The position numbers and the translations under genes were made by a program. A stretch of 64,000 nt of DNA from Escherichia coli (GTDB taxonomy: Bacteria; Pseudomonadota; Gammaproteobacteria; Enterobacterales; Enterobacteriaceae). Of this stretch, positions 17,392-55,002 are shown piece by piece (the first letter of the stretch is position 1; each line of letters begins with the position of its first letter). Below the pieces are notes generated by a model. The model was given only the letters and a program-made list of their open reading frames with translations, did not search any database and was not told the DNA's origin. The stretch lies in NCBI RefSeq assembly GCF_003334355.1, contig NZ_QOWP01000016.1; one strand, given 5' to 3'.

Positions 17392-17693
17392 GCGAGCAGT
17401 ATTCCTGATTTTAAACGTGAACGCCGCTGGAAGAATTATCAGGTATAGAATGGCGTCGGGTGCTTGAGGCTGTCTGGCGTTAAGCATTCGCGAGGTTCCA
17501 GATGGACAAAAGCCCCAGGCGATATTTCTATCAACCTGAGGCCAGCGTTCGAACCCAAACAATTCGAATGTTAGTCTCTTCTTTGCAGGGAGGCAAGACA
17601 TGTGTATATCACTGTAATTCGATATTTATGAGCAGCATCGAAAAATAGCCCGCTGATATCATCGATAATACTAAAAAAACAGGGAGGCTATTA

Positions 17694-17861: not shown

Positions 17862-20360
17862 ATGCTATCAAAACAGAGGGTGAAGGCCTGGCTGTTATTT
17901 TTCATTGCTCTTCATGATATTGGAAAGTTTGATATACGATTCCAATATAAATCAGCAGAAAGTTGGCTGAAATTAAATCCTGCAACGCCATCACTTAATG
18001 GTCCATCAACACAAATGTGCCGTAAATTTAATCATGGTGCAGCCGGTCTGTATTGGTTTAACCAGGATTCACTTTCAGAGCAATCTCTCGGGGATTTTTT
18101 CAGTTTTTTTGATGCCGCTCCTCATCCTTATGAGTCCTGGTTTCCATGGGTAGAGGCCGTTACAGGACATCATGGTTTTATATTACATTCCCAGGATCAA
18201 GATAAGTCGCGTTGGGAAATGCCAGCTTCTCTGGCATCTTATGCTGCGCAAGATAAACAGGCTCGTGAGGAGTGGATATCTGTACTGGAAGCATTATTTT
18301 TAACGCCAGCGGGGTTATCTATAAACGATATACCACCTGATTGTTCATCACTGTTAGCAGGTTTTTGCTCGCTTGCTGACTGGTTAGGCTCCTGGACTAC
18401 AACGAATACCTTTCTGTTTAATGAGGATGCGCCTTCCGACATAAATGCTCTGAGAACGTATTTCCAGGACCGACAGCAGGATGCGAGCCGGGTATTGGAG
18501 TTGAGTGGACTTGTATCAAATAAGCGATGTTATGAAGGTGTTCATGCACTACTGGACAATGGCTATCAACCCAGACAATTACAGGTGTTAGTTGATGCTC
18601 TTCCAGTAGCTCCCGGGCTGACGGTAATAGAGGCACCTACAGGCTCCGGTAAAACGGAAACAGCGCTGGCCTATGCTTGGAAACTTATTGATCAACAAAT
18701 TGCGGATAGTGTTATTTTTGCCCTCCCAACACAAGCTACCGCGAATGCTATGCTTACGAGAATGGAAGCGAGCGCGAGCCACTTATTTTCATCCCCAAAT
18801 CTTATTCTTGCTCATGGCAATTCACGGTTTAACCACCTCTTTCAATCAATAAAATCACGCGCGATTACTGAACAGGGGCAAGAAGAAGCGTGGGTTCAGT
18901 GTTGTCAGTGGTTGTCACAAAGCAATAAGAAAGTGTTTCTTGGGCAAATCGGCGTTTGCACGATTGATCAGGTGTTGATATCGGTATTGCCAGTTAAACA
19001 CCGCTTTATCCGTGGTTTGGGAATTGGTCGAAGTGTTTTAATTGTTGATGAAGTTCATGCTTACGACACCTATATGAACGGCTTGCTGGAGGCAGTGCTC
19101 AAGGCTCAGGCTGATGTGGGAGGGAGTGTTATTCTTCTTTCCGCAACCCTACCAATGAAACAAAAACAGAAACTTCTGGATACTTATGGTCTGCATACAG
19201 ATCCAGTGGAAAATAACTCCGCATATCCACTCATTAACTGGCGAGGTGTGAATGGTGCGCAACGTTTTGATCTGCTAGCTCATCCAGAACAACTCCCGCC
19301 CCGCTTTTCGATTCAGCCAGAACCTATTTATTTAGCTGACATGTTACCTGACCTTACGATGTTAGAGCGAATGATCGCAGCGGCAAACGCGGGTGCACAA
19401 GTCTGTCTTATTTGCAATTTGGTTGACGTTGCACAAGTATGCTACCAACGGCTAAAGGAGCTAAATAACACGCAAGTAGATATAGATTTGTTTCATGCAC
19501 GCTTTACGCTGAACGATCGTCGAGAAAAAGAGAATCGTGTTATTAGCGATTTCGGAAAAAATGGGGAGCGAAATGTTGGACGAATACTTGTCGCCACGCA
19601 AGTCGTGGAACAATCGCTCGACGTTGATTTTGATTGGTTAATTACCCAGCATTGTCCCGCAGATTTGCTTTTCCAACGATTGGGTCGTTTACATCGCCAT
19701 CATCGCAAATATCGTCCCGCTGGTTTTGAGATTCCTGTTGCCACCATTTTGCTGCCTGATGGCGAGGGTTACGGACGACATGAGCATATTTATAGCAACG
19801 TTAGAGTCATGTGGCGGACGCAGCAACATATTGAGGAACTTAATGGAGCATCCTTATTTTTCCCTGATGCCTACCGGCAATGGCTGGATAGCATTTACGA
19901 TGATGCTGAAATGGATGAGCCAGAATGGGTCATCAAAGGCATGGATAAGTTTGAAAGCGCTGAGTGTGAAAAGAGGTTCAAGGCTCGCAAGGTTCTGCAG
20001 TGGGCTGAAGAATATAGTTTGCAGGATAACGATGAAACCATTCTTGCGGTAACGAGGGATGGGGAAATGAGCCTGCCATTATTGCCTTATGTACAAACGT
20101 CTTCAGGTAAACAACTGCTCGATGGCCAGGTCTACGAGGACCTAAGTTATGAACAGCAGTATGAGGCGCTTGCACTTAATCGCGTCAATGTACCCTTCAC
20201 CTGGAAACGTAGTTTTTCTGAAGTAGTAGATGAAGATGGGTTACTTTGGCTGGAAGGGAAACAGAATCAGGATGGATGGTTCTGGCAGGGTAACAGTATT
20301 GTTATTACCTACACTCGGGATGAAGGGATGACCAGAGTCATCCCTGCAAATCCCAAATAA
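17862..20360 (+). CDS. cas3: Cas3 HD-nuclease/helicase, longest intact ORF (832 aa); lacks the first 56 codons of the recalled 888-aa protein
   Basis: HD motif (FFIALHDIGKF), Walker A (APTGSGKTE) and DEVH box (LIVDEVHAYD) are all present; no obvious SD upstream of ATG 17862. Confidence 0.85.
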   Translation: MLSKQRVKAWLLFFIALHDIGKFDIRFQYKSAESWLKLNPATPSLNGPSTQMCRKFNHGAAGLYWFNQDSLSEQSLGDFFSFFDAAPHPYESWFPWVEAVTGHHGFILHSQDQDKSRWEMPASLASYAAQDKQAREEWISVLEALFLTPAGLSINDIPPDCSSLLAGFCSLADWLGSWTTTNTFLFNEDAPSDINALRTYFQDRQQDASRVLELSGLVSNKRCYEGVHALLDNGYQPRQLQVLVDALPVAPGLTVIEAPTGSGKTETALAYAWKLIDQQIADSVIFALPTQATANAMLTRMEASASHLFSSPNLILAHGNSRFNHLFQSIKSRAITEQGQEEAWVQCCQWLSQSNKKVFLGQIGVCTIDQVLISVLPVKHRFIRGLGIGRSVLIVDEVHAYDTYMNGLLEAVLKAQADVGGSVILLSATLPMKQKQKLLDTYGLHTDPVENNSAYPLINWRGVNGAQRFDLLAHPEQLPPRFSIQPEPIYLADMLPDLTMLERMIAAANAGAQVCLICNLVDVAQVCYQRLKELNNTQVDIDLFHARFTLNDRREKENRVISDFGKNGERNVGRILVATQVVEQSLDVDFDWLITQHCPADLLFQRLGRLHRHHRKYRPAGFEIPVATILLPDGEGYGRHEHIYSNVRVMWRTQQHIEELNGASLFFPDAYRQWLDSIYDDAEMDEPEWVIKGMDKFESAECEKRFKARKVLQWAEEYSLQDNDETILAVTRDGEMSLPLLPYVQTSSGKQLLDGQVYEDLSYEQQYEALALNRVNVPFTWKRSFSEVVDEDGLLWLEGKQNQDGWFWQGNSIVITYTRDEGMTRVIPANPK

Positions 20361-20774: not shown

Positions 20775-22283
20775 ATGAATTTGCTTATTGATAACTGGAT
20801 CCCTGTACGCCCGCGAAACGGGGGGAAAGTCCAAATCATAAATCTGCAATCGCTATACTGCAGTAGAGATCAGTGGCGATTAAGTTTGCCCCGTGACGAT
20901 ATGGAACTGGCCGCTTTAGCACTGCTGGTTTGCATTGGGCAAATTATCGACCCGGCAAAAGATGACGTTGAATTTCGACATCGCATAATGAATCCGCTCA
21001 CTGAAGATGAGTTTCAACAACTCATCGCGCCGTGGATAGATATGTTCTACCTTAATCACGCAGAACATCCCTTTATGCAGACCAAAGGTGTCAAAGCAAA
21101 TGATGTGACTCCAATGGAAAAACTGTTGGCAGGGGTAAGCGGCGCGACGAATTGTGCTTTTGTCAATCAACCGGGTCAGGGTGAAGCATTATGTGGTGGA
21201 TGCACTGCGATTGCGTTATTCAACCAGGCGAATCAGGCACCTGGTTTTGGTGGTGGCTTTAAAAGCGGTTTACGTGGAGGAACACCTATAACCACCTTCG
21301 TACGTGGGATCGATCTTCGCTCGACGGTGTTACTCAATGTCCTCACAATACCTCGTCTTCAAAAACAATTTCCCAATGAATCACATACGGAAAACCAACC
21401 TACCTGGGTTAAGCCTGTCAAACCCAATGAATCTGTGCCAGCTTCGTCAATTGGCTTTGTCCGCGGCTTATTCTGGCAACCTGCGCATATTGAATTATGC
21501 GATCCCATTGGGATTGGAAAATGTTCTTGCTGTGGACAGGAAAGCAATTTGCGTTATACCGGTTTTCTTAAGGAAAAATTTACCTTTACAGTTAATGGGC
21601 TATGGCCCCATCCGCATTCCCCTTGTCTGGTAACAGTCAAGAAAGGGGAGGTTGAGGAAAAATTTCTTGCTTTCACCACCTCCGCACCATCATGGACACA
21701 AATCAGCCGAGTTGTGGTAGATAAGATTATTCAAAATGAAAATGGAAATCGCGTGGCGGCGGTTGTGAATCAATTCAGAAATATTGCGCCGCAAAGTCCT
21801 CTTGAATTGATTATGGGGGGATATCGTAATAATCAAGCATCTATTCTTGAACGGCGTCATGATGTGTTGATGTTTAATCAGGGGTGGCAACAATACGGCA
21901 ATGTGATAAACGAAATAGTTACTGTTGGTTTGGGATATAAAACAGCCTTACGCAAGGCGTTATATACCTTTGCAGAAGGGTTTAAAAATAAAGACTTTAA
22001 AGGGGCTGGAGTCTCTGTTCATGAGACTGCAGAAAGGCATTTCTATCGACAGAGTGAATTATTAATTCCCGATGTACTGGCGAATGTTAATTTTTCCCAG
22101 GCTGATGAGGTCATAGCTGATTTACGAGACAAACTTCATCAATTGTGTGAAATGTTATTTAATCAATCTGTAGCGCCCTATGCACATCATCCTAAATTAA
22201 TAAGCACATTAGCGCTCGCCCGCGCCACGCTATACAAACATTTACGGGAGTTAAAACCGCAAGGAGGGCCATCAAATGGCTGA
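20775..22283 (+). CDS. casA: Cascade large subunit Cse1
   Basis: 502 aa, MNLLIDNWIPVRPRNGGKV... Confidence 0.95.
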   Translation: MNLLIDNWIPVRPRNGGKVQIINLQSLYCSRDQWRLSLPRDDMELAALALLVCIGQIIDPAKDDVEFRHRIMNPLTEDEFQQLIAPWIDMFYLNHAEHPFMQTKGVKANDVTPMEKLLAGVSGATNCAFVNQPGQGEALCGGCTAIALFNQANQAPGFGGGFKSGLRGGTPITTFVRGIDLRSTVLLNVLTIPRLQKQFPNESHTENQPTWVKPVKPNESVPASSIGFVRGLFWQPAHIELCDPIGIGKCSCCGQESNLRYTGFLKEKFTFTVNGLWPHPHSPCLVTVKKGEVEEKFLAFTTSAPSWTQISRVVVDKIIQNENGNRVAAVVNQFRNIAPQSPLELIMGGYRNNQASILERRHDVLMFNQGWQQYGNVINEIVTVGLGYKTALRKALYTFAEGFKNKDFKGAGVSVHETAERHFYRQSELLIPDVLANVNFSQADEVIADLRDKLHQLCEMLFNQSVAPYAHHPKLISTLALARATLYKHLRELKPQGGPSNG

Positions 22284-22758
22284 TGAAATTGATGCAATGG
22301 CTTTATATCGAGCCTGGCAACAACTGGATAACGGAGCATGTGCGCAAATTAGACGTGTTTCAGAACCTGATGAATTACGCGATATCCCTGCGTTTTATAG
22401 GCTGGTGCAACCTTTTGGTTGGGAAAACCCACGTCACCAGCAGGCTCTTTTACGCATGGTGTTTTGCCTGAGCGCAGGAAAGAATGTCATCCGACATCAG
22501 GACAAAAAACCGGAGCAAACAACAGGTATCTCGTTGGGAAGAGCTTTAGCCAATAGTGGAAGAATTAACGAGCGCCGTATCTTTCAATTAATTCGGGCTG
22601 ACAGAACAGCCGATATGGTCCAGTTACGTCGATTGCTTGCTCACGCCGAACCCGTACTTGACTGGCCATTAATGGCCAGGATGTTGACCTGGTGGGGAAA
22701 GCGCGAACGCCAGCAACTTCTGGAAGATTTTGTATTGACCACAAACAAAAATGCGTAA
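22276..22758 (+). CDS. casB: Cascade small subunit Cse2
   Basis: 160 aa; overlaps the casA end. Confidence 0.95.
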   Translation: MADEIDAMALYRAWQQLDNGACAQIRRVSEPDELRDIPAFYRLVQPFGWENPRHQQALLRMVFCLSAGKNVIRHQDKKPEQTTGISLGRALANSGRINERRIFQLIRADRTADMVQLRRLLAHAEPVLDWPLMARMLTWWGKRERQQLLEDFVLTTNKNA

Positions 22759-22770
22759 GGAAACCTTTCT

Positions 22771-23862
22771 ATGTCTAACTTTATCAATATTCATGTTCTG
22801 ATCTCTCACAGCCCTTCATGTCTGAACCGCGACGATATGAACATGCAGAAAGACGCTATTTTCGGCGGGAAAAGACGAGTAAGAATTTCAAGTCAAAGCC
22901 TTAAACGTGCGATGCGTAAAAGTGATTATTACGCACAAAATATTGGTGAATCCAGTCTCAGAACAATTCATCTTGCACAATTACGTGATGTTCTTCGGCA
23001 AAAACTTAGTGAACGTTTTGACCAAAAAATCATCGATAAGACATTAGCGCTGCTCTCCGGTAAATCAGTTGATGAAGCCGAAAAGATTTCTGCCGATGCG
23101 GTTACTCCCTGGGTTGTGGGGGAAATAGCCTGGTTCTGTGAGCAGGTTGCAAAAGCAGAGGCTGATAATCTGGATGATAAAAAGCTGCTCAAAGTTCTTA
23201 AGGAAGATATTGCCGCCATACGTGTGAATTTACAGCAGGGTGTTGATATTGCGCTTAGTGGAAGAATGGCAACCAGCGGCATGATGAGTGAGTTGGGAAA
23301 AGTTGATGGTGCAATGTCTATTGCGCACGCGATCACTACCCATCAGGTTGATTCTGATATTGACTGGTTCACCGCCGTAGATGATTTACAGGAACAAGGT
23401 TCTGCACATCTGGGAACACAGGAATTTTCATCGGGTGTTTTTTATCGTTATGCCAATATTAACCTCGCTCAACTTCAGGAAAATTTAGGCGGTGCCTCCA
23501 GGGAGCAGGCTCTGGAAATTGCAACCCATGTTGTTCATATGCTGGCAACAGAGGTCCCTGGAGCAAAACAGCGTACTTATGCCGCTTTTAACCCTGCGGA
23601 TATGGTAATGGTTAATTTCTCCGATATGCCACTTTCTATGGCAAATGCTTTTGAAAAAGCGGTGAAAGCGAACGATGGCTTTTTGCAACCGTCTTTACAG
23701 GCGTTTAATCAATATTGGGATCGCGTTGCCAATGGATATGGTCTGAACGGAGCCGCTGCGCAATTCAGCTTGTCTGATGTAGACCCTATTACTGGCCAGG
23801 TACAGCAAATGCCTACTTTAGAACAGTTAAAGTCCTGGGTTCGTAATAATGGCGAGGCGTGA
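22771..23862 (+). CDS. casC: Cascade backbone subunit Cas7
   Basis: 363 aa. Confidence 0.95.
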
Positions 23863-23864
23863 AC

Positions 23865-24539
23865 ATGAGATCTTATTTGATCTTGCGACTTGCTGGGCCA
23901 ATGCAAGCCTGGGGGCAGCCGACCTTTGAAGGAACGCGACCTACCGGAAGATTTCCGACCCGAAGCGGGTTATTAGGGCTACTCGGGGCTTGTCTTGGGA
24001 TCCAACGTGATGATACTTCTTCATTACAGGCGTTATCAGAGAGTGTGCAATTTGCAGTGCGCTGCGATGAACTCATTCTTGACGATCGTCGTGTGTCTGT
24101 AACGGGGTTGCGTGATTACCATACAGTCCTTGGAGCGCGAGAAGATTACCGTGGTTTGAAAAGTCATGAAACGATTCAAACATGGCGCGAATATTTATGT
24201 GATGCCTCCTTTACCGTCGCTCTCTGGTTAACACCACAGGCAACGATGGTTATGTCAGAACTTGAAAAAGCAGTATTAAAGCCTCGGTATACACCGTATC
24301 TGGGGCGGAGGAGTTGTCCGCTAACACAACCGCTTTTTCTCGGGACATGTCAGGCATCGGATCCTCAGAAGGTGCTATTAAATTATGAGCCCGTTGGCGG
24401 CGATATTTATAGTGAGGAATCAGTTGACGGGCATCATTTAAAATTTACGGTGCGCGACGAACCGATGATCACCTTGCCTCGACAATTTGCTTCCCGAGAA
24501 TGGTATGTGATTAAAGGAGGTATGGATGTATCTCAGTAA
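23865..24539 (+). CDS. casD: Cascade subunit Cas5
   Basis: 224 aa from ATG 23865 (MRSYLILRLAGPMQAWG). Confidence 0.93.
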   Translation: MRSYLILRLAGPMQAWGQPTFEGTRPTGRFPTRSGLLGLLGACLGIQRDDTSSLQALSESVQFAVRCDELILDDRRVSVTGLRDYHTVLGAREDYRGLKSHETIQTWREYLCDASFTVALWLTPQATMVMSELEKAVLKPRYTPYLGRRSCPLTQPLFLGTCQASDPQKVLLNYEPVGGDIYSEESVDGHHLKFTVRDEPMITLPRQFASREWYVIKGGMDVSQ

Positions 24540-25125
24540 AGTCATCATTGCCAGGGCCTGGAGCAGGGATCTTTACCAACTTCACCAGGGATTATGGCAT
24601 TTATTTCCAAACAGACCGGATGCTGCTCGTGATTTTCTTTTTCATGTTGAGAAGCGAAACACACCAGAAGGCTGTCATGTTTTATTGCAGTCAGCGCAAA
24701 TGCCTGTTTCAACTGCCGTTGCGACAGTCATTAAAACTAAACAGGTTGAATTTCAACTTCAGGTTGGTGTTCCACTCTATTTTCGGCTTCGGGCAAATCC
24801 GATAAAAACTATTCTCGACAATCAAAAACGCCTGGACAGTAAAGGGAATATAAAACGCTGTCGGGTTCCGTTAATAAAAGAAGCAGAACAAATCGCGTGG
24901 TTGCAGCGTAAATTGGGCAATGCCGCGCGCGTTGAAGATGTGCATCCCATATCGGAACGACCACAGTATTTTTCTGGTGATGGTAAAAGTGGAAAGATCC
25001 AAACGGTTTGCTTTGAAGGGGTGATCACCATCAACGACGCGCCAGCGTTAATAGATCTTGTACAGCAAGGTATTGGGCCAGCCAAATCGATGGGATGTGG
25101 CTTGCTATCCCTGGCTCCACTGTGA
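24526..25125 (+). CDS. casE: Cas6e pre-crRNA endoribonuclease
   Basis: 199 aa; 14-bp overlap with casD. Confidence 0.95.
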   Translation: MYLSKVIIARAWSRDLYQLHQGLWHLFPNRPDAARDFLFHVEKRNTPEGCHVLLQSAQMPVSTAVATVIKTKQVEFQLQVGVPLYFRLRANPIKTILDNQKRLDSKGNIKRCRVPLIKEAEQIAWLQRKLGNAARVEDVHPISERPQYFSGDGKSGKIQTVCFEGVITINDAPALIDLVQQGIGPAKSMGCGLLSLAPL

Positions 25126-25140
25126 TTAAGGTGTAATAAA

Positions 25141-26344
<1,204 letters not shown>

Positions 26345-26449
26345 AAACAAAGAATTAGCTGATCTTTAATAATAAGGAAATGTTACATTAAGGTTGGTGG
26401 GTTGTTTTTATGGGAAAAAATGCTTTAAGAACAAATGTATACTTTTAGA
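26345..26449 (+). promoter_or_regulatory. CRISPR leader (crRNA promoter and spacer-integration region)
   Basis: AT-rich 105 bp between the cas2 stop and the first repeat, ending ...ACTTTTAGA. Confidence 0.8.
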
Positions 26450-26600
26450 GAGTTCCCCGCGTCAGCGGGGATAAACCGCCAAAGCAAAAGAAGTCGTCGA
26501 TAATATGCGTGAGTTCCCCGCGTCAGCGGGGATAAACCGGGCGCACTGGATGCGATGATGGATATCACTTAGAATTCCCCGCCCCTGCGGTAGAACACCC
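26450..26600 (+). CRISPR. Cas-adjacent CRISPR array (CRISPR2.1-like): 2 intact repeats plus a degenerate terminal repeat, 2 spacers
   Basis: GAGTTCCCCGCGTCAGCGGGGATAAACCG at 26450 and 26511 (T at repeat position 13, where the distal array has C); degenerate GAATTCCCCGCCCCTGCGGTAGAACACCC at 26572. Confidence 0.93.
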
Positions 26601-26620
26601 AGCTCCCATTTTCAAACCCA

Positions 26621-27658
26621 TCAAGACGCCTTCGCCAACTCCTTCACCAGAGGTAGCATTATCCGCATAACGTCACGGCAGCGACGTTCTATTCTTCCAG
26701 GAAGTGCCTTATCAATATGCTGTTGATTATCCAGTCTTACGTCATGCCAGCTATTTCCCGCAGGGAATGCGGCTGTTTTTGCGCGTTGCTGATAACCATC
26801 CTTATTCCCAAGATTCCAGTTAGTCGCTTCCACCGAAAGTACAGCAATGCCCGCTTTGTCGAATATTTCTGCGTCATTACAACACCCAGTGCCTTTCGGA
26901 TAATTTTTATTCAAACCCGGATTGGTCGTTGCGGCTATTCCGTGACTGCGTGCAATTGCCAGCGCCCTGTCGCGCGTTAATTTCCTTACTGCTTCAGGGG
27001 TTTTTACACCGCTGTTGAAATACAATTTATCGCCAACAATTAAGTTATCGAGATTAATCACCAGCAGCGTATTTTTCTTTTCGGTGTCACTCATCCGCTT
27101 GAGTAAATTCTCAGCGCCTAATTTCCCTTCCTCTTCGCCGCTGGTCGCCACAAATCGAATACCATACTCGGTAGGCGTATTTTTCAGGCGTTCTGCCAAT
27201 TCCAGCATGACACCTAAACCTGCGGCGTTATCATCCATTCCTTGTAACGTCAGCCCGCCGAGATTGGCATCGGCGTCAGCATCGCTCAGCGGGGCGTAAG
27301 TATCCAGATGCGCCATAATGATGATCTGCTGCGGCGCTTTGCCTTCATGAGCGGCAATCACCGTACTTCCCGTCACGTTATGCCAGCTCTTACGATTATC
27401 GCGGGCGGTATAAATATACCGACTATTAAATGTCCGAATATCACTGCGATAACCCATTTGCTGAAACTGTTGGCGAATATAATCGGCAGATAACATTTCT
27501 GCAGGAGTTCCGGTCATGCGTCCCGGAAAGAAAGTAGCAATATGTCGTGCCTGAGTATTAGCAAAATCGCCAGGTTTAGGTGACGAGGCGTGTACGGGGA
27601 GAATAAAGCATACGCCGAGCGCCAGGGCAGCGGTACGGTGGCGCAATGCGGAAAACAT
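26621..27658 (-). CDS. iap: Alkaline phosphatase isozyme conversion aminopeptidase
   Basis: 345-aa ORF. Confidence 0.9.
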   Translation of the reverse strand: MFSALRHRTAALALGVCFILPVHASSPKPGDFANTQARHIATFFPGRMTGTPAEMLSADYIRQQFQQMGYRSDIRTFNSRYIYTARDNRKSWHNVTGSTVIAAHEGKAPQQIIIMAHLDTYAPLSDADADANLGGLTLQGMDDNAAGLGVMLELAERLKNTPTEYGIRFVATSGEEEGKLGAENLLKRMSDTEKKNTLLVINLDNLIVGDKLYFNSGVKTPEAVRKLTRDRALAIARSHGIAATTNPGLNKNYPKGTGCCNDAEIFDKAGIAVLSVEATNWNLGNKDGYQQRAKTAAFPAGNSWHDVRLDNQQHIDKALPGRIERRCRDVMRIMLPLVKELAKAS

Positions 27659-44480: not shown

Positions 44481-44585
44481 GGTTTTACCCTGTAAAATAA
44501 GCTTTCCTATTATACAGGGTGTTTTTATTTTATTCGTCAGTTGTCGTTAATATTCCCGATAGCAAAAGACTATCGGGAATTGTTA

Positions 44586-47147
44586 TTACACCAGGCTCTT
44601 CAAGCGATAAATCCACTCCAGCGCCTGACGCGGGGTGAGTGAATCCGGATCAAGATTTTCCAGAGCTTCGACCGCAGGCGAAGTTTCTTCTGGTACTGAC
44701 AGCAAAGACATTTGCGTACCATCCACTTGCGTAGCGGCGGCGTTCGGCGAAATGCTTTCCAGCTCACGCAGCTTTTGCCGTGCGCGCTTAATAACCTCTT
44801 TTGGCACGCCTGCCAGAGCTGCAACCGCCAGGCCGTAGCTTTTGCTCGCCGCGCCATCCTGCACGCTGTGCATAAAGGCAATGGTGTCGCCGTGCTCCAG
44901 TGCATCGAGATGCACGTTAGCGACGCCTTCCATTTTCTCCGGTAACTGGGTCAGCTCGAAATAGTGGGTAGCAAACAGCGTCAATGCCTTAATCTTATTC
45001 GCCAGATTTTCTGCGCACGCCCACGCCAGCGACAGACCATCGTAAGTGGACGTTCCACGCCCGATCTCATCCATCAATACCAGACTGTACTCGGTGGCGT
45101 TATGTAAAATATTGGCGGTTTCGGTCATCTCCACCATAAAGGTTGAGCGCCCGGACGCTAGGTCATCTGCCGCGCCTACGCGGGTAAAGATGCGATCGAT
45201 AGGTCCAATCTCGACTTTTTGTGCCGGTACATAGCTGCCGATGTAGGCCATCAGCGCAATCAGTGCGGTCTGGCGCATATAGGTACTTTTACCGCCCATG
45301 TTCGGACCGGTGATGATCAACATGCGGCGCTGCGGCGACAGATTCAGCGGGTTGGCGATAAATGGCTCATTCAGTACTTGTTCAACTACCGGATGGCGAC
45401 CTTCGGTAATGCGAATGCCCGGTTTATCAATGAAGGTCGGGCAGGTGTAGTTCAGGGTATAGGCGCGTTCCGCCAGGTTCACCAGCACGTCGAGTTCCGC
45501 CAGCGCGCTCGCGCTCTGTTGCAACGCTTCCAGATGCGGCAACAGCAGGTCGAACAACTCTTCATAAAGCTGTTTTTCCAGTGCCAGTGCTTTGCCTTTT
45601 GAGGTGAGAACTTTATCTTCGTACTCTTTTAGCTCTGGAATGATGTAGCGCTCGGCGTTTTTCAGCGTCTGGCGACGCATGTAGTTGATGGGTGCCAGAT
45701 GGCTTTGCCCACGGCTGATTTGAATGTAGTAGCCGTGCACCGCATTAAAGCCAACTTTCAGCGTGTCCAGGCCGGTACGTTCACGCTCGCGGACTTCCAG
45801 ACGCTCCAGATAATCGGTCGCGCCGTCAGCCAGCGCGCGCCACTCATCCAGCTCTTCGTTATAGCCCGATGCGATAACACCACCGTCGCGTACCAGCACC
45901 GGCGGTGTGTCGATGATTGCTCGCTCCAGCAGATCGCGCAGCTCGGCAAACTCGCCCATCTTCTCGCGTAGCGCCTGTACCGGTGCACTATCGACAGTTT
46001 CTAACTGCGCACGCAGCTCCGGCAGTTGCTGGAAAGCGTGGCGCATACGGGCCAGATCGCGTGGGCGAGCAGTTCGTAAAGCCAGACGTGCCAGAATACG
46101 TTCCAGGTCGCCGACCTGACGCAGTACCGGCTGCAACTCGGCGGTGAAATCCTGCAATGCGCCAATAGTTTGCTGGCGCTCAAGCAACACGCGGGTATCG
46201 CGCACTGGCATATGCAGCCAGCGTTTCAGCATACGACTACCCATCGGCGTGACGGTGCAGTCGAGCACAGAAGCCAGCGTATTTTCCGCACCGCCCGCCA
46301 GGTTCTGAGTAATTTCCAGGTTACGACGTGTCGCGGCATCCATAATGATGCTGTCCTGCTCACGTTCCATGGTGATGGAACGAATATGCGGCAGAGTCGT
46401 ACGTTGGGTATCTTTCGCATACTGCAACAGACAACCGGCAGCACAAAGTCCGCGCGGCGCGTTCTCGACGCCAAAACCGACCAGATCGCGGGTCCCAAAT
46501 TGCAGATTCAACTGCTGGCGCGCGGTGTCGATTTCAAACTCCCACAGCGGGCGACGGCGCAGGCCGCGACGGCCTTCAATTAACGACATTTCAGCAAAAT
46601 CTTCTGCATACAGCAGTTCCGCAGGATTAGTGCGTTGCAGTTCTGCCGCCATCGTTTCCCGGTCAGCCGGTTCGCTCAGGCGAAAACGCCCGGAACTGAT
46701 ATCCAGCGTCGCGTAGCCGAAACCTTTGCTGTCCTGCCAGATAGCCGCCAGCAGGTTGTCCTGACGCTCCTGCAACAGGGCTTCATCGCTGATGGTGCCT
46801 GGCGTAACGATACGCACAACTTTGCGCTCAACCGGACCTTTGCTGGTCGCCGGATCGCCAATTTGTTCGCAGATGGCAACGGACTCGCCCTGATTCACCA
46901 GTTTGGCGAGGTAGTTTTCCACCGCATGGTAGGGGATCCCCGCCATCGGGATCGGCTCTCCCGCTGAAGCGCCGCGTTTGGTCAGTGAGATATCCAGCAG
47001 TTGCGACGCGCGTTTTGCGTCGTCATAAAACAGTTCATAAAAATCACCCATCCGGTAAAACAGCAGGATCTCGGGATGCTGGGCTTTCAGCTTGAGATAC
47101 TGCTGCATCATGGGCGTATGGGCGTCGAAATTTTCTATTGCACTCAT
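44586..47147 (-). CDS. mutS: DNA mismatch repair protein MutS
   Basis: 853 aa; Walker [10 protein letters not shown]. Confidence 0.96.
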
Positions 47148-47393
47148 GGGGTTATGTCCGGTTCCCTGATATTAAATGGGGTGTGATGGTTTTTATTTTC
47201 GTTGTAATCACATAAGGCGCACATGATACCGGAGTTAATCATTTCAGGGGAAGAAGCGAACGGCGAGTTCTTGATGCTGGTTCCGGGAAAGATGCTGTTT
47301 TGCAGCTTTTGCGTGATGCTTATGAAGCAAGTACGCAAAATTGCGTCGGTTGGCGAACCCTTCTTCTTTAGAGTCATAGTGCCCTTTAAGATT

Positions 47394-47416
47394 AAGATGT
47401 AATATAAATACATCTT
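47394..47416. promoter_or_regulatory. Candidate NsrR operator upstream of ygbA
   Basis: AAGATGTA-ATATAA-ATACATCTT inverted repeat, 18 bp before the ygbA ATG. Confidence 0.55.
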
Positions 47417-47433
47417 AATGAGGTGGAGGCAGC

Positions 47434-47787
47434 ATGTCCGGCAAGCGTATCTCTCGTGAAAAACTGACGATTAAAAAAATGATCGATCTTTATCAAGCGA
47501 AATGCCCGCAGGCGTCAGCGGAGCCGGAGCATTACGAGGCGTTGTTTGTTTACGCGCAAAAGCGGCTGGATAAATGTGTGTTCGGCGAAGAGAAACCAGC
47601 CTGTAAGCAGTGTCCGGTGCACTGTTACCAGCCTGCAAAGCGTGAAGAGATGAAACAGATTATGCGTTGGGCCGGGCCGAGAATGCTGTGGCGTCATCCG
47701 ATCTTAACCGTGCGTCATCTCATCGATGACAAGCGTCCGGTGCCAGAACTGCCGGAAAAATATCGTCCGAAAAAACCTCATGAATAG
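47434..47787 (+). CDS. ygbA: Nitrous-oxide-stimulated-promoter family small Cys-rich protein
   Basis: 117 aa. Confidence 0.88.
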   Translation: MSGKRISREKLTIKKMIDLYQAKCPQASAEPEHYEALFVYAQKRLDKCVFGEEKPACKQCPVHCYQPAKREEMKQIMRWAGPRMLWRHPILTVRHLIDDKRPVPELPEKYRPKKPHE

Positions 47788-47790
47788 TAT

Positions 47791-47820
47791 GCCGGACAGG
47801 CAGATCTGTCCGGCAATTTG
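47791..47820. terminator. Hairpin between convergent ygbA and fhlA, weak bidirectional terminator
   Basis: GCCGGACAG gcagat CTGTCCGGC. Confidence 0.4.
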
Positions 47821-47823
47821 CAG

Positions 47824-49902
47824 TTAAATCAATGCCGATTTATCAATTCCCAGCCGCTTCATCCGTGACAGCAGGGTCGTGCGTTTCAGCCCCAGACGTT
47901 GCGCAGCGCCTTTAGGCCCGGCAACCACGCCGTTGGTTTCTTTCAGCACGCGCACAATCAACTGATATTCATCTTCGCCCTCCTGGGCGACAACCGTTGC
48001 GGCAGGCGGCGTTTCAGGTTCCGGTAAAACAATATCTGGCAATGACAGCTGCAGCACGTTACCGCGTGTTAGCAATACCGCGCGCTCAATGACGTTTTCC
48101 AGTTCGCGTACGTTACCCGGCCACTCCATGTTGCTCAAGGTGCGCAGCGTCTCGGCAGGAATGCTGTCGATATTGCGCCCCAGACGACGGGCAATTTTGA
48201 AGGTAAAGGCTTTCGCCAGCAGCGGAATATCTTCCGGACGCTCGCGTAGTGGCGGCAGGTGAATCGGGAATACGTTCAGGCGGTAATAGAGATCGCTACG
48301 GAACTCACGGTCGGCGACCATTTTTTTCAGATCGCGGTTAGTCGCGGCGATTAGACGCACGTCCGTCTGAATGATTTTGTTGCTGCCGAGACGTTCAAAC
48401 TCCTGTTCCTGCAATACACGCAGCAACTTCGGCTGTAACTCCAGTGGCATATCGCCCACTTCGTCGAGGAACAGGGAGCTTTTATCCGCCAGTTCAAAAC
48501 GACCGATACGCTGGGCGCTGGCACCGGTAAAAGCCCCACGCTCATGACCAAACAGATCGCTTTCCAGCAATCCGGCAGGCATCGCCGCGCAGTTCATTTT
48601 GACCATGCGGCGATTATTACGCCCACTGAGATTATGGATCGCACGGGCAATCAGCTCTTTACCCGTGCCAGTTTCACCGAGGATCAGCACGGTACTGTCA
48701 CTTTGCGCCACCATTTCAACTTGTTTAAGCACGCTGTACATGGCTTCGCTGCGGCCAATAATCTCGCCAAATTCACTATCAACATTGTTGAGCTGCTCGG
48801 TCAGGGCGAGGTTTTCATCAACCAGCCGTTCTTTCAGACGATGGATTTCCTGATAGGCGAGGGCGTTATCGACAGCGATTGCCACACGTTCGGCAATCTG
48901 GCGCAGTAAATTCAGATTGGTAGTGGTAAACACTTTCTCTTCGCATTGCGCCAGTTTCAGCACGCCCAGCATGGTGTCGCCAGACATCAGCGGTAACAGG
49001 CACAAGGTTTGAATCTGGTTGCCCCAGGTGTCGAACAACATGCGTTCATAGGGGGCTAAATCGTCCCGCTCGTGGAGATTGATCAGCAGCATCTCTTTAC
49101 TTTTGAACACGCGTTCGGTGAGGGTTCCGGCTTCATCGACTTCGCTCTGTTCGTGGGCGGGATGCTGTTTATCAAGATAGTGAGTGGAGTAGATGTTGAG
49201 TTTGTTTTTACGGTGGCTGCGTAAGACGATACTGATATCGTCAATGTCGAAATAGTAATGGATTTCTTTGGCGACTTCGCTGACCAGTTCGTCCATATCC
49301 AGGCGGGAAAGCACCGCGTTGGTGATGGCGACCAGGATGCGGAAGTTATCGCGTTCCCGGCATAACAACTCATAGTCGACATTGTTAACGACGCGGCTCT
49401 GGATTTGTTCGGTGACGACAGAAACGATCTGCGTAAATGTTTGCAGACGATTGAACTCTTTTTCGCTCCAGGGGCGATCGTCATAACGAATAAATTCACA
49501 GCCACCAAAAATATGCCCTTCCGCCGCCAGTGGCATCAGGCAATAGTGACCAAATTTTGGGTATAGCCCACCTGCGGCCAGCTGCGGCCAGGTTTCACAA
49601 AATTCTTCGTAACTGCAATGCAGCGTATCAGGGCGCGACAAAATGCTGCGTACCGGACCGTGTGCCAGAACAGTTTCGTCTTCATATTTAATGGGGGTGT
49701 CTTTTTCACGCGACGCGTAATAAGACGCACGTTGAGTCTGCGCTTGCCACAACACAATAGCCGCGTTGTCGGCGAGCGCAGAACGCTTTACCAGTTGCGA
49801 AAGAGCCTCACACAGCGAGGCCAGATCGGGCTGCTGCAATAGTGTCCGAGTGATGTCGAACAACCCTTGTTGTCCGAGATCACTCATCGGTGTATATGAC
49901 AT
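47824..49902 (-). CDS. fhlA: Formate hydrogenlyase transcriptional activator (sigma-54 enhancer-binding protein)
   Basis: 692 aa from MSYTPMSDLGQQ; AAA+ motif GETGTGKE; C-terminal HTH. Confidence 0.93.
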   Translation of the reverse strand: MSYTPMSDLGQQGLFDITRTLLQQPDLASLCEALSQLVKRSALADNAAIVLWQAQTQRASYYASREKDTPIKYEDETVLAHGPVRSILSRPDTLHCSYEEFCETWPQLAAGGLYPKFGHYCLMPLAAEGHIFGGCEFIRYDDRPWSEKEFNRLQTFTQIVSVVTEQIQSRVVNNVDYELLCRERDNFRILVAITNAVLSRLDMDELVSEVAKEIHYYFDIDDISIVLRSHRKNKLNIYSTHYLDKQHPAHEQSEVDEAGTLTERVFKSKEMLLINLHERDDLAPYERMLFDTWGNQIQTLCLLPLMSGDTMLGVLKLAQCEEKVFTTTNLNLLRQIAERVAIAVDNALAYQEIHRLKERLVDENLALTEQLNNVDSEFGEIIGRSEAMYSVLKQVEMVAQSDSTVLILGETGTGKELIARAIHNLSGRNNRRMVKMNCAAMPAGLLESDLFGHERGAFTGASAQRIGRFELADKSSLFLDEVGDMPLELQPKLLRVLQEQEFERLGSNKIIQTDVRLIAATNRDLKKMVADREFRSDLYYRLNVFPIHLPPLRERPEDIPLLAKAFTFKIARRLGRNIDSIPAETLRTLSNMEWPGNVRELENVIERAVLLTRGNVLQLSLPDIVLPEPETPPAATVVAQEGEDEYQLIVRVLKETNGVVAGPKGAAQRLGLKRTTLLSRMKRLGIDKSALI

Positions 49903-49975
49903 TTTGTTCTTCCAGGAAAGCACCGCAAAGCGGTGCAAAAGGTCATTGACTAACTATAGGAGATTTAGAATTTTA

Positions 49976-53804: not shown

Positions 53805-54266
53805 ATGACTATTTGGGAAATAAGCGAGAAAGCCGATTACATCGCACAGCGGCATCGTCGCCTACAGGACCAGTGGCACATCTACTGCAATTCGCTGGTT
53901 CAGGGGATCACGTTATCGAAAGCGCGCCTGCATCACGCCATGAGCTGCGCGCCGGACAAAGAACTCTGTTTCGTCCTTTTTGAACATTTTCGCATTTACG
54001 TCACCCTGGCGGATGGCTTTAACAGCCACACCATCGAGTATTACGTCGAAACAAAAGATGGCGAAGACAAACAGCGGATTGCGCAGGCGCAACTGAGCAT
54101 TGACGGCATGATTGATGGCAAGGTCAACATCCGCGATCGCGAACAGGTTCTGGAACACTATCTCGAAAAAATCGCTGGCGTTTACGACAGCTTATACACC
54201 GCTATTGAAAACAATGTGCCGGTGAATTTAAGCCAACTGGTAAAGGGACAAAGCCCGGCAGCATGA
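53805..54266 (+). CDS. hycA: Formate hydrogenlyase regulatory protein HycA
   Basis: 153 aa. Confidence 0.92.
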   Translation: MTIWEISEKADYIAQRHRRLQDQWHIYCNSLVQGITLSKARLHHAMSCAPDKELCFVLFEHFRIYVTLADGFNSHTIEYYVETKDGEDKQRIAQAQLSIDGMIDGKVNIRDREQVLEHYLEKIAGVYDSLYTAIENNVPVNLSQLVKGQSPAA

Positions 54267-54314: not shown

Positions 54315-54372
54315 CGTGTCGATGAGTGTCGAAAATGACATTTCATCGGCATGTTTTCGTCAAAAATGACAA
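54315..54372. promoter_or_regulatory. Direct repeats of a CGAAAATGACA-like motif between hycA and hycB (candidate FhlA UAS)
   Basis: TGTCGATGAGTG, TGTCGAAAATGACA and CGTCAAAAATGACA. Confidence 0.45.
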
Positions 54373-54390: not shown

Positions 54391-55002
54391 GTGAATCGTT
54401 TTGTAATTGCTGACTCCACGCTCTGTATCGGCTGCCACACTTGTGAGGCCGCCTGTTCAGAGACGCATCGCCAGCACGGCCTGCAATCAATGCCGCGCCT
54501 GAGAGTGATGCTGAATGAAAAAGAATCTGCGCCGCAGCTCTGTCACCACTGTGAAGATGCACCCTGCGCGGTGGTCTGCCCGGTTAACGCCATCACCCGC
54601 GTTGATGGGGCCGTGCAGTTGAATGAAAGCCTGTGCGTAAGCTGCAAGCTGTGCGGCATCGCCTGCCCGTTTGGCGCAATTGAATTTTCCGGCAGCCGTC
54701 CGCTGGATATTCCGGCAAACGCCAATACCCCGAAAGCGCCACCGGCACCGCCTGCTCCGGCGCGTGTCAGCACATTGCTTGACTGGGTGCCAGGTATTCG
54801 CGCGATCGCCGTCAAATGTGACCTTTGTAGCTTTGATGAACAAGGTCCGGCCTGCGTGCGGATGTGCCCGACTAAAGCCCTGCATCTGGTGGATAACACT
54901 GATATCGCCCGCGTCAGCAAACGTAAGCGTGAGCTGACTTTTAACACGGACTTTGGCGATCTCACCTTGTTTCAGCAGGCTCAAAGTGGAGAGGCTAAAT
55001 GA
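54391..55002 (+). CDS. hycB: Formate hydrogenlyase Fe-S subunit HycB
   Basis: 203 aa from GTG 54391; multiple CxxCxxCxxxCP ferredoxin motifs. Confidence 0.93.
   Translation: MNRFVIADSTLCIGCHTCEAACSETHRQHGLQSMPRLRVMLNEKESAPQLCHHCEDAPCAVVCPVNAITRVDGAVQLNESLCVSCKLCGIACPFGAIEFSGSRPLDIPANANTPKAPPAPPAPARVSTLLDWVPGIRAIAVKCDLCSFDEQGPACVRMCPTKALHLVDNTDIARVSKRKRELTFNTDFGDLTLFQQAQSGEAK

Follow-up and report, generated by a model that had tools for sequence, protein, structure and literature searches.

A conserved palindrome that is very probably the NsrR operator of ygbA, and its overlap with a predicted promoter in Escherichia coli

The mutS-ygbA-fhlA locus

The stretch of DNA analyzed here (the window) comprises 64,000 nt from Escherichia coli (RefSeq assembly GCF_003334355.1, contig NZ_QOWP01000016.1). 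It includes the small gene ygbA, which lies between mutS and fhlA and is preceded by a palindrome. The features of the locus are as follows.

44586..47147, minus strand: mutS, divergent from ygbA, the two sharing a common 286-bp intergenic region
47391..47419, no strand assigned: full perfect palindrome with the spacer ATATAAA, reaching 3 bp past the operator on each side
47394..47416, no strand assigned: very probable NsrR operator of the 11-1-11 type, with left half AAGATGTAATA (47394-47404), centre T (47405), and right half AAATACATCTT (47406-47416)
47434..47787, plus strand: ygbA coding sequence, the regulated gene, encoding a Cys-rich protein of 117 aa in the YgbA_NO family
47790..47815, no strand assigned: probable terminator of the ygbA transcript, judged by its form, a 10-bp perfect GC-rich inverted repeat and then ATTT
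47824..49938, minus strand: fhlA, convergent with ygbA

RefSeq annotates the open reading frame (ORF) at 47434..47787 as ygbA. Its product matches NCBIfam NF007713, "nitrous oxide-stimulated promoter family protein" (the PRK10410 equivalog), at 274 bits, where the cut-off is 234, and Pfam PF11756 (YgbA_NO) with E = 1.4e-40. Several complete E. coli chromosomes carry the region with 100% identity, and 5408 of the 5426 complete E. coli genomes contain at least 80% of it. The gene and its surroundings do vary: in E. coli THO-006, STLEFF_47, and WCHEC000837 (loci L003, L004, and L005), YgbA has 114 aa instead of 117, the gene convergent with ygbA encodes a TOBE-domain protein instead of fhlA, and the adjacent gene order differs.

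The PGAP annotation also places a 59-aa "hypothetical protein" at 47223..47402 on the plus strand, whose stop codon would fall within the NsrR operator. This ORF was judged to be probably spurious because its length and annotation vary (in other strains it has 44 aa, is frameshifted, or is unannotated), the K-12 RefSeq omits it, it has no NCBIfam match, and the region shows no conservation across species.

Two further elements lie elsewhere in the window. The stretch 17458..17614 (plus strand) scores 103.7 bits with the Rfam sok antitoxin family (CssrC, RF01794; gathering score 59). An 832-aa ORF (17862..20360) begins shortly downstream, and the match indicates a putative remnant of a hok/sok-type toxin-antitoxin system. 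In addition, a direct-repeat search found two copies of GAGTTCCCCGCGTCAGCGGGGATAAACCG, 61 bp apart, at 26439..26539, downstream of a run of plus-strand ORFs (20775..26344), while Tandem Repeats Finder gave nothing at 25900..27000. The pair presumably resembles a minimal type I-E CRISPR array beside a putative cas operon.

A perfect palindrome upstream of ygbA

Read directly, positions 47394..47416 are AAGATGTAATATAAATACATCTT. A repeat search places this 23-mer within a perfect inverted repeat whose 11-nt arms, ATTAAGATGTA (47391-47401) and TACATCTTAAT (47409-47419), are separated by a spacer of 7 nt. The original prediction had described a perfect inverted repeat with 8-bp arms; the pairing it described is correct, but the arms are longer than it stated. 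Its division of the sequence into 8-6-9 was slightly off, the 23-mer splitting as 8 + 7 + 8, which in the NsrR format is read as 11-1-11. The distance to the ygbA start had been put at 18 bp, but the gap between the operator and the ATG at 47434 is 17 nt (47417..47433).

The palindrome exceeds chance expectation. The window contains 4 perfect inverted repeats whose arms measure 11 nt or more and whose spacer is no longer than 10 nt, compared with a mean of 0.07 in 30 dinucleotide-preserving shuffles of the same sequence. Furthermore, it differs in character from two other perfect repeats of this count, which are terminator-like and lie past the ends of mutS and ygbA, since it is AT-rich, stands upstream of a gene, and is not followed by a run of T residues. 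Of those other repeats, the one past mutS is an 11-bp perfect repeat at 44552..44580, just beyond the end of the gene, and the one between ygbA and fhlA (47790..47815) reads TGCCGGACAG-GCAGAT-CTGTCCGGCA.

Match to the NsrR motif

NsrR is an iron-sulfur, NO-sensing repressor of the Rrf2 family, whose gene lies elsewhere on the chromosome. It has been described as an [Fe-S], NO-sensitive repressor that recognizes 11-1-11 repeats, and 27 predicted sites of this type in strain CFT073, the CFT073 allele of the ygbA site among them, are given by Mehta et al. 2015 (Table 4 in PMC5320621). From this table, a symmetrised weight matrix was built using 15 distinct ChIP-seq-positive sites, with both ygbA and hycB left out. 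When the window was scanned with this matrix, a check that the original prediction had suggested, the ygbA site ranked first among 63,978 positions, with a score of 22.6 bits. The probability of a score this high or higher is 8e-9 per position, which corresponds to 5e-4 expected sites in 64 kb and 2e-6 in the intergenic region. The published ChIP-seq-positive sites score from 12.4 to 31.2 bits, a range within which the ygbA site falls.

The runner-up in the window, at 54333..54355 and 13.9 bits, is the published ChIP-seq-positive hycB NsrR site. Thus, the matrix works, because an independent true site that had been left out of its training was recovered as the second-best match. The sequence of this second site, AAATGACATTTCATCGGCATGTT, is identical to the CFT073 "hycB" entry (PMC5320621, Table 4), and it sits between the ORFs 53805..54266 and 54391..55002, taken here as hycA and hycB.

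Comparison with consensus sequences gives a similar picture. The operator has 4 mismatches in 22 positions relative to AAGATGCATTT-N-AAATGCATCTT, and its left half, AAGATGTAATA, departs from the consensus AAGATGCATTT at positions 9 and 11. The site shares the 23-bp architecture of the E. coli 11-1-11 operators of ytfE, hcp, hmp, yeaR, and tehA and carries their consensus bases, AAgaTGyAttt-N-aaATrCAtCTT. In addition, GATGTAA-TATAA-ATACATC fits, by eye, 13 of the 14 specified positions of the NsrR motif gATGyAT-N5-ATrCATc (Rodionov et al. 2005, PMC1274295). Relative to the published ygbA operator, nothing essential is different; the present allele is a perfect palindrome with 11-bp arms that includes 3 flanking bases.

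Conservation of the site

Within E. coli, the operator is identical in K-12 MG1655. Over a 306-bp stretch spanning the mutS-ygbA intergenic region, there are 4 differences between the window and MG1655, none of them in the palindrome. The intergenic region itself (47148..47433) is unusually polymorphic in the species, with 1048 genomes 80-90% identical to it and 1423 at 90-95%. Identity falls to 87.5% in some of the strains examined, yet the operator alleles keep their format. Four alleles were seen, AAGATGTAATATAAATACATCTT, AAGTTGTAATATAAATGCATCTT, AAGTTGTAATATAAATACACCTT, and AAGTTGTAATATAAATGCACCTT, all of which score between 21.3 and 22.9 bits. Only the K-12-type allele forms a perfect palindrome; in the remaining E. 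coli alleles and in other species, the symmetry is lost at position pairs 4/20 and 7/17. The CFT073 allele differs from that of the window by 3 substitutions and has an equal matrix score; the "ygbA" entry in Table 4 of PMC5320621, AAGGTGCATTTATATTACAACTT, gives the site as read on the opposite strand, with these three substitutions. The nsrR gene, which lies outside the window, was found in all 5426 complete E. coli genomes, and one nsrR-carrying genome has a ygbA region 100% identical to that of the window.

Beyond E. coli, a footprint was compiled from 80 loci, one per species, taken from species-representative genomes with YgbA. The genera covered are Escherichia, Citrobacter, Salmonella, Enterobacter, Klebsiella, Raoultella, Kluyvera, Leclercia, Lelliottia, Hafnia, Rahnella, and others. 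Within the 300 bp upstream of the ygbA orthologue, the best matrix match lies 12-22 bp from the start codon in 79 of the 80 species, and the sites have a median score of 19.3 bits, with 70 of the 80 reaching at least 15 bits. As a control, the strongest match anywhere else was taken across about 3 kb of these loci; the control scores have a median of 6.0 bits and reach 15.3 at most. Both the matrix score and this conserved placement bear out the earlier assignment of the repeat to the general form of NsrR operators.

Aligned on the site, the 80 species show flanks in which change has reached saturation, whereas the site itself is retained. The 23-bp site averages 1.41 bits of information per position, the 70 bp upstream of it 0.20, and the leader 0.41. 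Each of the bases A1, A2, G6, T7, A8, T16, C18, A19, T22, and T23 is found in 77 to 80 of the 80 species. Strong purifying selection acts on the site, whose position is fixed across Enterobacterales. Two loci are unusual. In Hafnia paralvei (L086), the exception to the placement, a 15.3-bit site stands 41 bp from the ATG, and in Enterobacteriaceae bacterium UBA5654 (L065), a degenerate site, AAGAGGTAACATTCAAGCCTCTT, scoring 3.9 bits, is present at the usual distance.

A predicted promoter within the operator

The same alignment suggests where the ygbA promoter may lie. The predicted elements, together with the ribosome-binding site, are as follows.

47377..47382, plus strand: predicted weak -35 element, TAGTGC, 17 bp upstream of the -10
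47400..47405, plus strand: predicted sigma-70 -10 hexamer, TAATAT, occupying part of the left half-site and the operator centre
47412, plus strand: predicted transcription start, an A 7 nt after the -10, placed from the -10 geometry
47425..47429, plus strand: Shine-Dalgarno sequence GGAGG, 4 nt before the ATG, read from the sequence

Positions 7, 8, 11, and 12 of the site (T, A, A, and T) are kept in 80, 80, 79, and 80 of the 80 species. Taken together, positions 7-12 spell TAATAT in the window; most of the other species have TATTAT, TAAAAT, or TAGAAT. The hexamer agrees with TATAAT at 5 of 6 positions in 70 species and at 4 of 6 in the remaining 10. The centre base, position 12, is T in every species of the footprint, whereas it varies among published NsrR sites (PMC5320621). 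NsrR leaves this position unspecified, and its invariance is as expected if the base were the -7 T of a -10 hexamer.

Evidence for the -35 element is of the same kind. Within the upstream flank, conservation is confined to a ttG at the -35 offset, in which the G carries 1.5 bits, and the mean number of matches to TTGACA is 2.8 at a spacing of 17 bp, compared with 1.4-1.6 at 16 or 18 bp and 1.5 at control offsets. Scanning 47100..47900 for consensus sigma-70 promoters gave no call, owing to the weakness of the -35; the promoter assignment thus rests on cross-species conservation. Positions 18-19 of the site are C-A in 76 of the 80 species. The predicted promoter would give ygbA a leader of 22 nt, and a motif like the Shine-Dalgarno sequence is found in the short leader of 53 of the 80 orthologues.

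With these placements, the operator would cover about -18 to +5 of the predicted promoter. Like the E. coli 11-1-11 operators, the ygbA site would then lie in the core promoter of an NO-induced gene, and the departures of the left half-site from the consensus at positions 9 and 11 would apparently reflect its second role as the -10 hexamer. Bodenmiller and Spiro (2006) are reported to place the inverted repeat over the -10 element of the ytfE, hmpA, and ygbA promoters, and the placement that we infer agrees with this.

Alternative explanations

Several other accounts of the palindrome were considered, the first of which would be an addition to NsrR control of ygbA rather than a replacement for it. 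Because mutS shares the 286-bp intergenic region and is read away from ygbA, the operator might also modulate mutS. However, the site lies 247 bp from the mutS ATG but only 17 bp from that of ygbA, nothing between the site and mutS is conserved across species, and mutS is absent among the NsrR targets in PMC5320621. Such a second role is therefore very unlikely.

A regulator other than NsrR might instead bind the palindrome, with the effect of NsrR on ygbA being indirect; the candidates considered were NorR (with a sigma-54 promoter), FNR, Fur, NarL/NarP, and IscR. AT-rich palindromes are, after all, common in promoters. IscR, with its type 1 and type 2 operators, is an Rrf2 paralogue of NsrR; these regulators are dimeric winged-helix Fe-S proteins that bind AT-rich inverted repeats of about 25 bp that overlap promoters. 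However, the ygbA site shows no match to the IscR type 1 consensus with up to 8 mismatches allowed, and a search of the 286-bp intergenic region (47148..47433) at permissive mismatches gave no match to NorR-type, sigma-54, Fur, NarL heptamer, or IscR type 1 sequences. The GATGT...ACATC core is superficially like the Vibrio NorR2 motif GATGT-N7-ACATC (PMC1274295), but the GATGT and ACATC arms are 9 bp apart here rather than 7. A NorR enhancer has GT-N7-AC repeats lying upstream of a GG-N10-GC sigma-54 promoter. The only FNR-like match is GTGATGCTTATGAA at 47313..47326, which has 2 mismatches to TTGAT-N4-ATCAA. It stands about 70 bp upstream of the site, has its centre some 92.5 bp before the predicted ygbA start, and, lying in sequence that is not conserved across species, is probably not meaningful. 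In contrast, the NsrR consensus fits with the few mismatches given above, and the score is typical of ChIP-confirmed sites. Thus, it is most unlikely that another regulator accounts for the palindrome.

Selection on the palindrome could also act on a structure, either an RNA hairpin in the ygbA leader (an attenuator, stabilizer, or terminator) or a DNA cruciform, and not on a protein-binding site. Folded as RNA, 47385..47433 does form an 11-bp stem of -10.7 kcal/mol, with z = -4.0 relative to shuffled sequences. However, complementarity at the pairs 7/17, 4/20, and 11/13 holds in just 13, 19, and 33 of the 80 species, no compensatory, pairing-preserving changes were seen in the orthologues, and the individual bases are instead conserved to the NsrR consensus. 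The identity of the bases is conserved and the pairing of the arms is not; consequently, selection acts on the bases of the half-sites, as expected of a protein site and not of a hairpin. Furthermore, the stem is AT-rich with no T-run after it, a terminator scan made no call, and Rfam has no family match at the palindrome even at E <= 1. The predicted transcription start also lies inside the right arm, so that transcripts made from the ygbA promoter would lack the left arm. A hairpin or cruciform is thus extremely improbable.

Finally, the view that the conserved block is simply the -10 region of the ygbA core promoter, with a fortuitous likeness to NsrR sites, deserves almost no credence: although the most invariant bases, T7, A8, A11, and T12, are those of the -10 hexamer, A1, A2, G6, T16, C18, A19, T22, and T23 are retained too, in 77 to 80 of the 80 species, and make up the outer bases of the NsrR half-sites, AA..G / ..T.CA..TT, the matrix probability is as low as 8e-9 per position, and published genetics show nsrR dependence (PMC5320621, PMC2884951).

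NsrR control of ygbA

Taken together, these results make it very probable that the palindrome is the NsrR operator at the ygbA promoter, at which NsrR would exclude polymerase until NO nitrosylates its cluster. In this model, a dimer of holo-NsrR would bind the 23-bp 11-1-11 site at 47394..47416. The bound protein would cover both the -10 (47400..47405) and the start (about 47412), and, given this geometry, may thereby bar sigma-70 RNA polymerase. Nitrosylation of the cluster by NO would cause NsrR to leave the DNA, and a monocistronic ygbA mRNA with a short leader could then be made.

The ygbA operator is already known, being present both in the literature and in regulon databases, and it is from the literature that NsrR binding and repression are taken. 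In E. coli, ygbA is NsrR-regulated according to Bodenmiller & Spiro 2006, and its promoter was bound by NsrR in the K-12 ChIP-chip work of Partridge et al. 2009, both as cited in PMC5320621. Repression of hmp, ytfE, and ygbA by NsrR/YjeB has been ascribed to a common inverted repeat (PMC1274295), and in a Salmonella nsrR mutant, ygbA mRNA is up 31.8-fold (PMC2884951). The membership of ygbA in the NsrR regulon, which the original prediction had named, is thus upheld by the K-12 work, as cited in PMC5320621, and by the Salmonella data. In CFT073, NsrR ChIP-seq gave no peak at ygbA, a result that the authors deem a false negative (PMC5320621), and ygbA is named among the genes upregulated in nitrate-grown cells of this strain.

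Implications

Since ygbA was an established member of the NsrR regulon, the present analysis changes little in that respect. What it adds is an independent confirmation, by way of a leave-one-out matrix and a footprint of 80 species, and a clear case for a left half-site that serves at the same time as the -10 element, a double role that would explain both the conserved departures from the consensus and the invariant centre base.

The within-species variation invites a more speculative proposal. If the operator and the -10 hexamer share the same bases, the K-12-type allele, with A4/T20 and A17 and perfect symmetry, might bind NsrR measurably better than the B2/CFT073-type allele (T4/C20, G17). 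This idea is tentative and is, on balance, doubtful. If it were true, however, the difference between alleles would account for the positive ChIP-chip result at ygbA in K-12 versus the negative ChIP-seq result in CFT073, and it would imply strain-specific levels of basal ygbA expression and strain-specific NO thresholds.

As for the gene product, YgbA is a small Cys-rich protein that probably acts in NO stress, a role that is underlined by the strict conservation of NsrR control across Enterobacterales.
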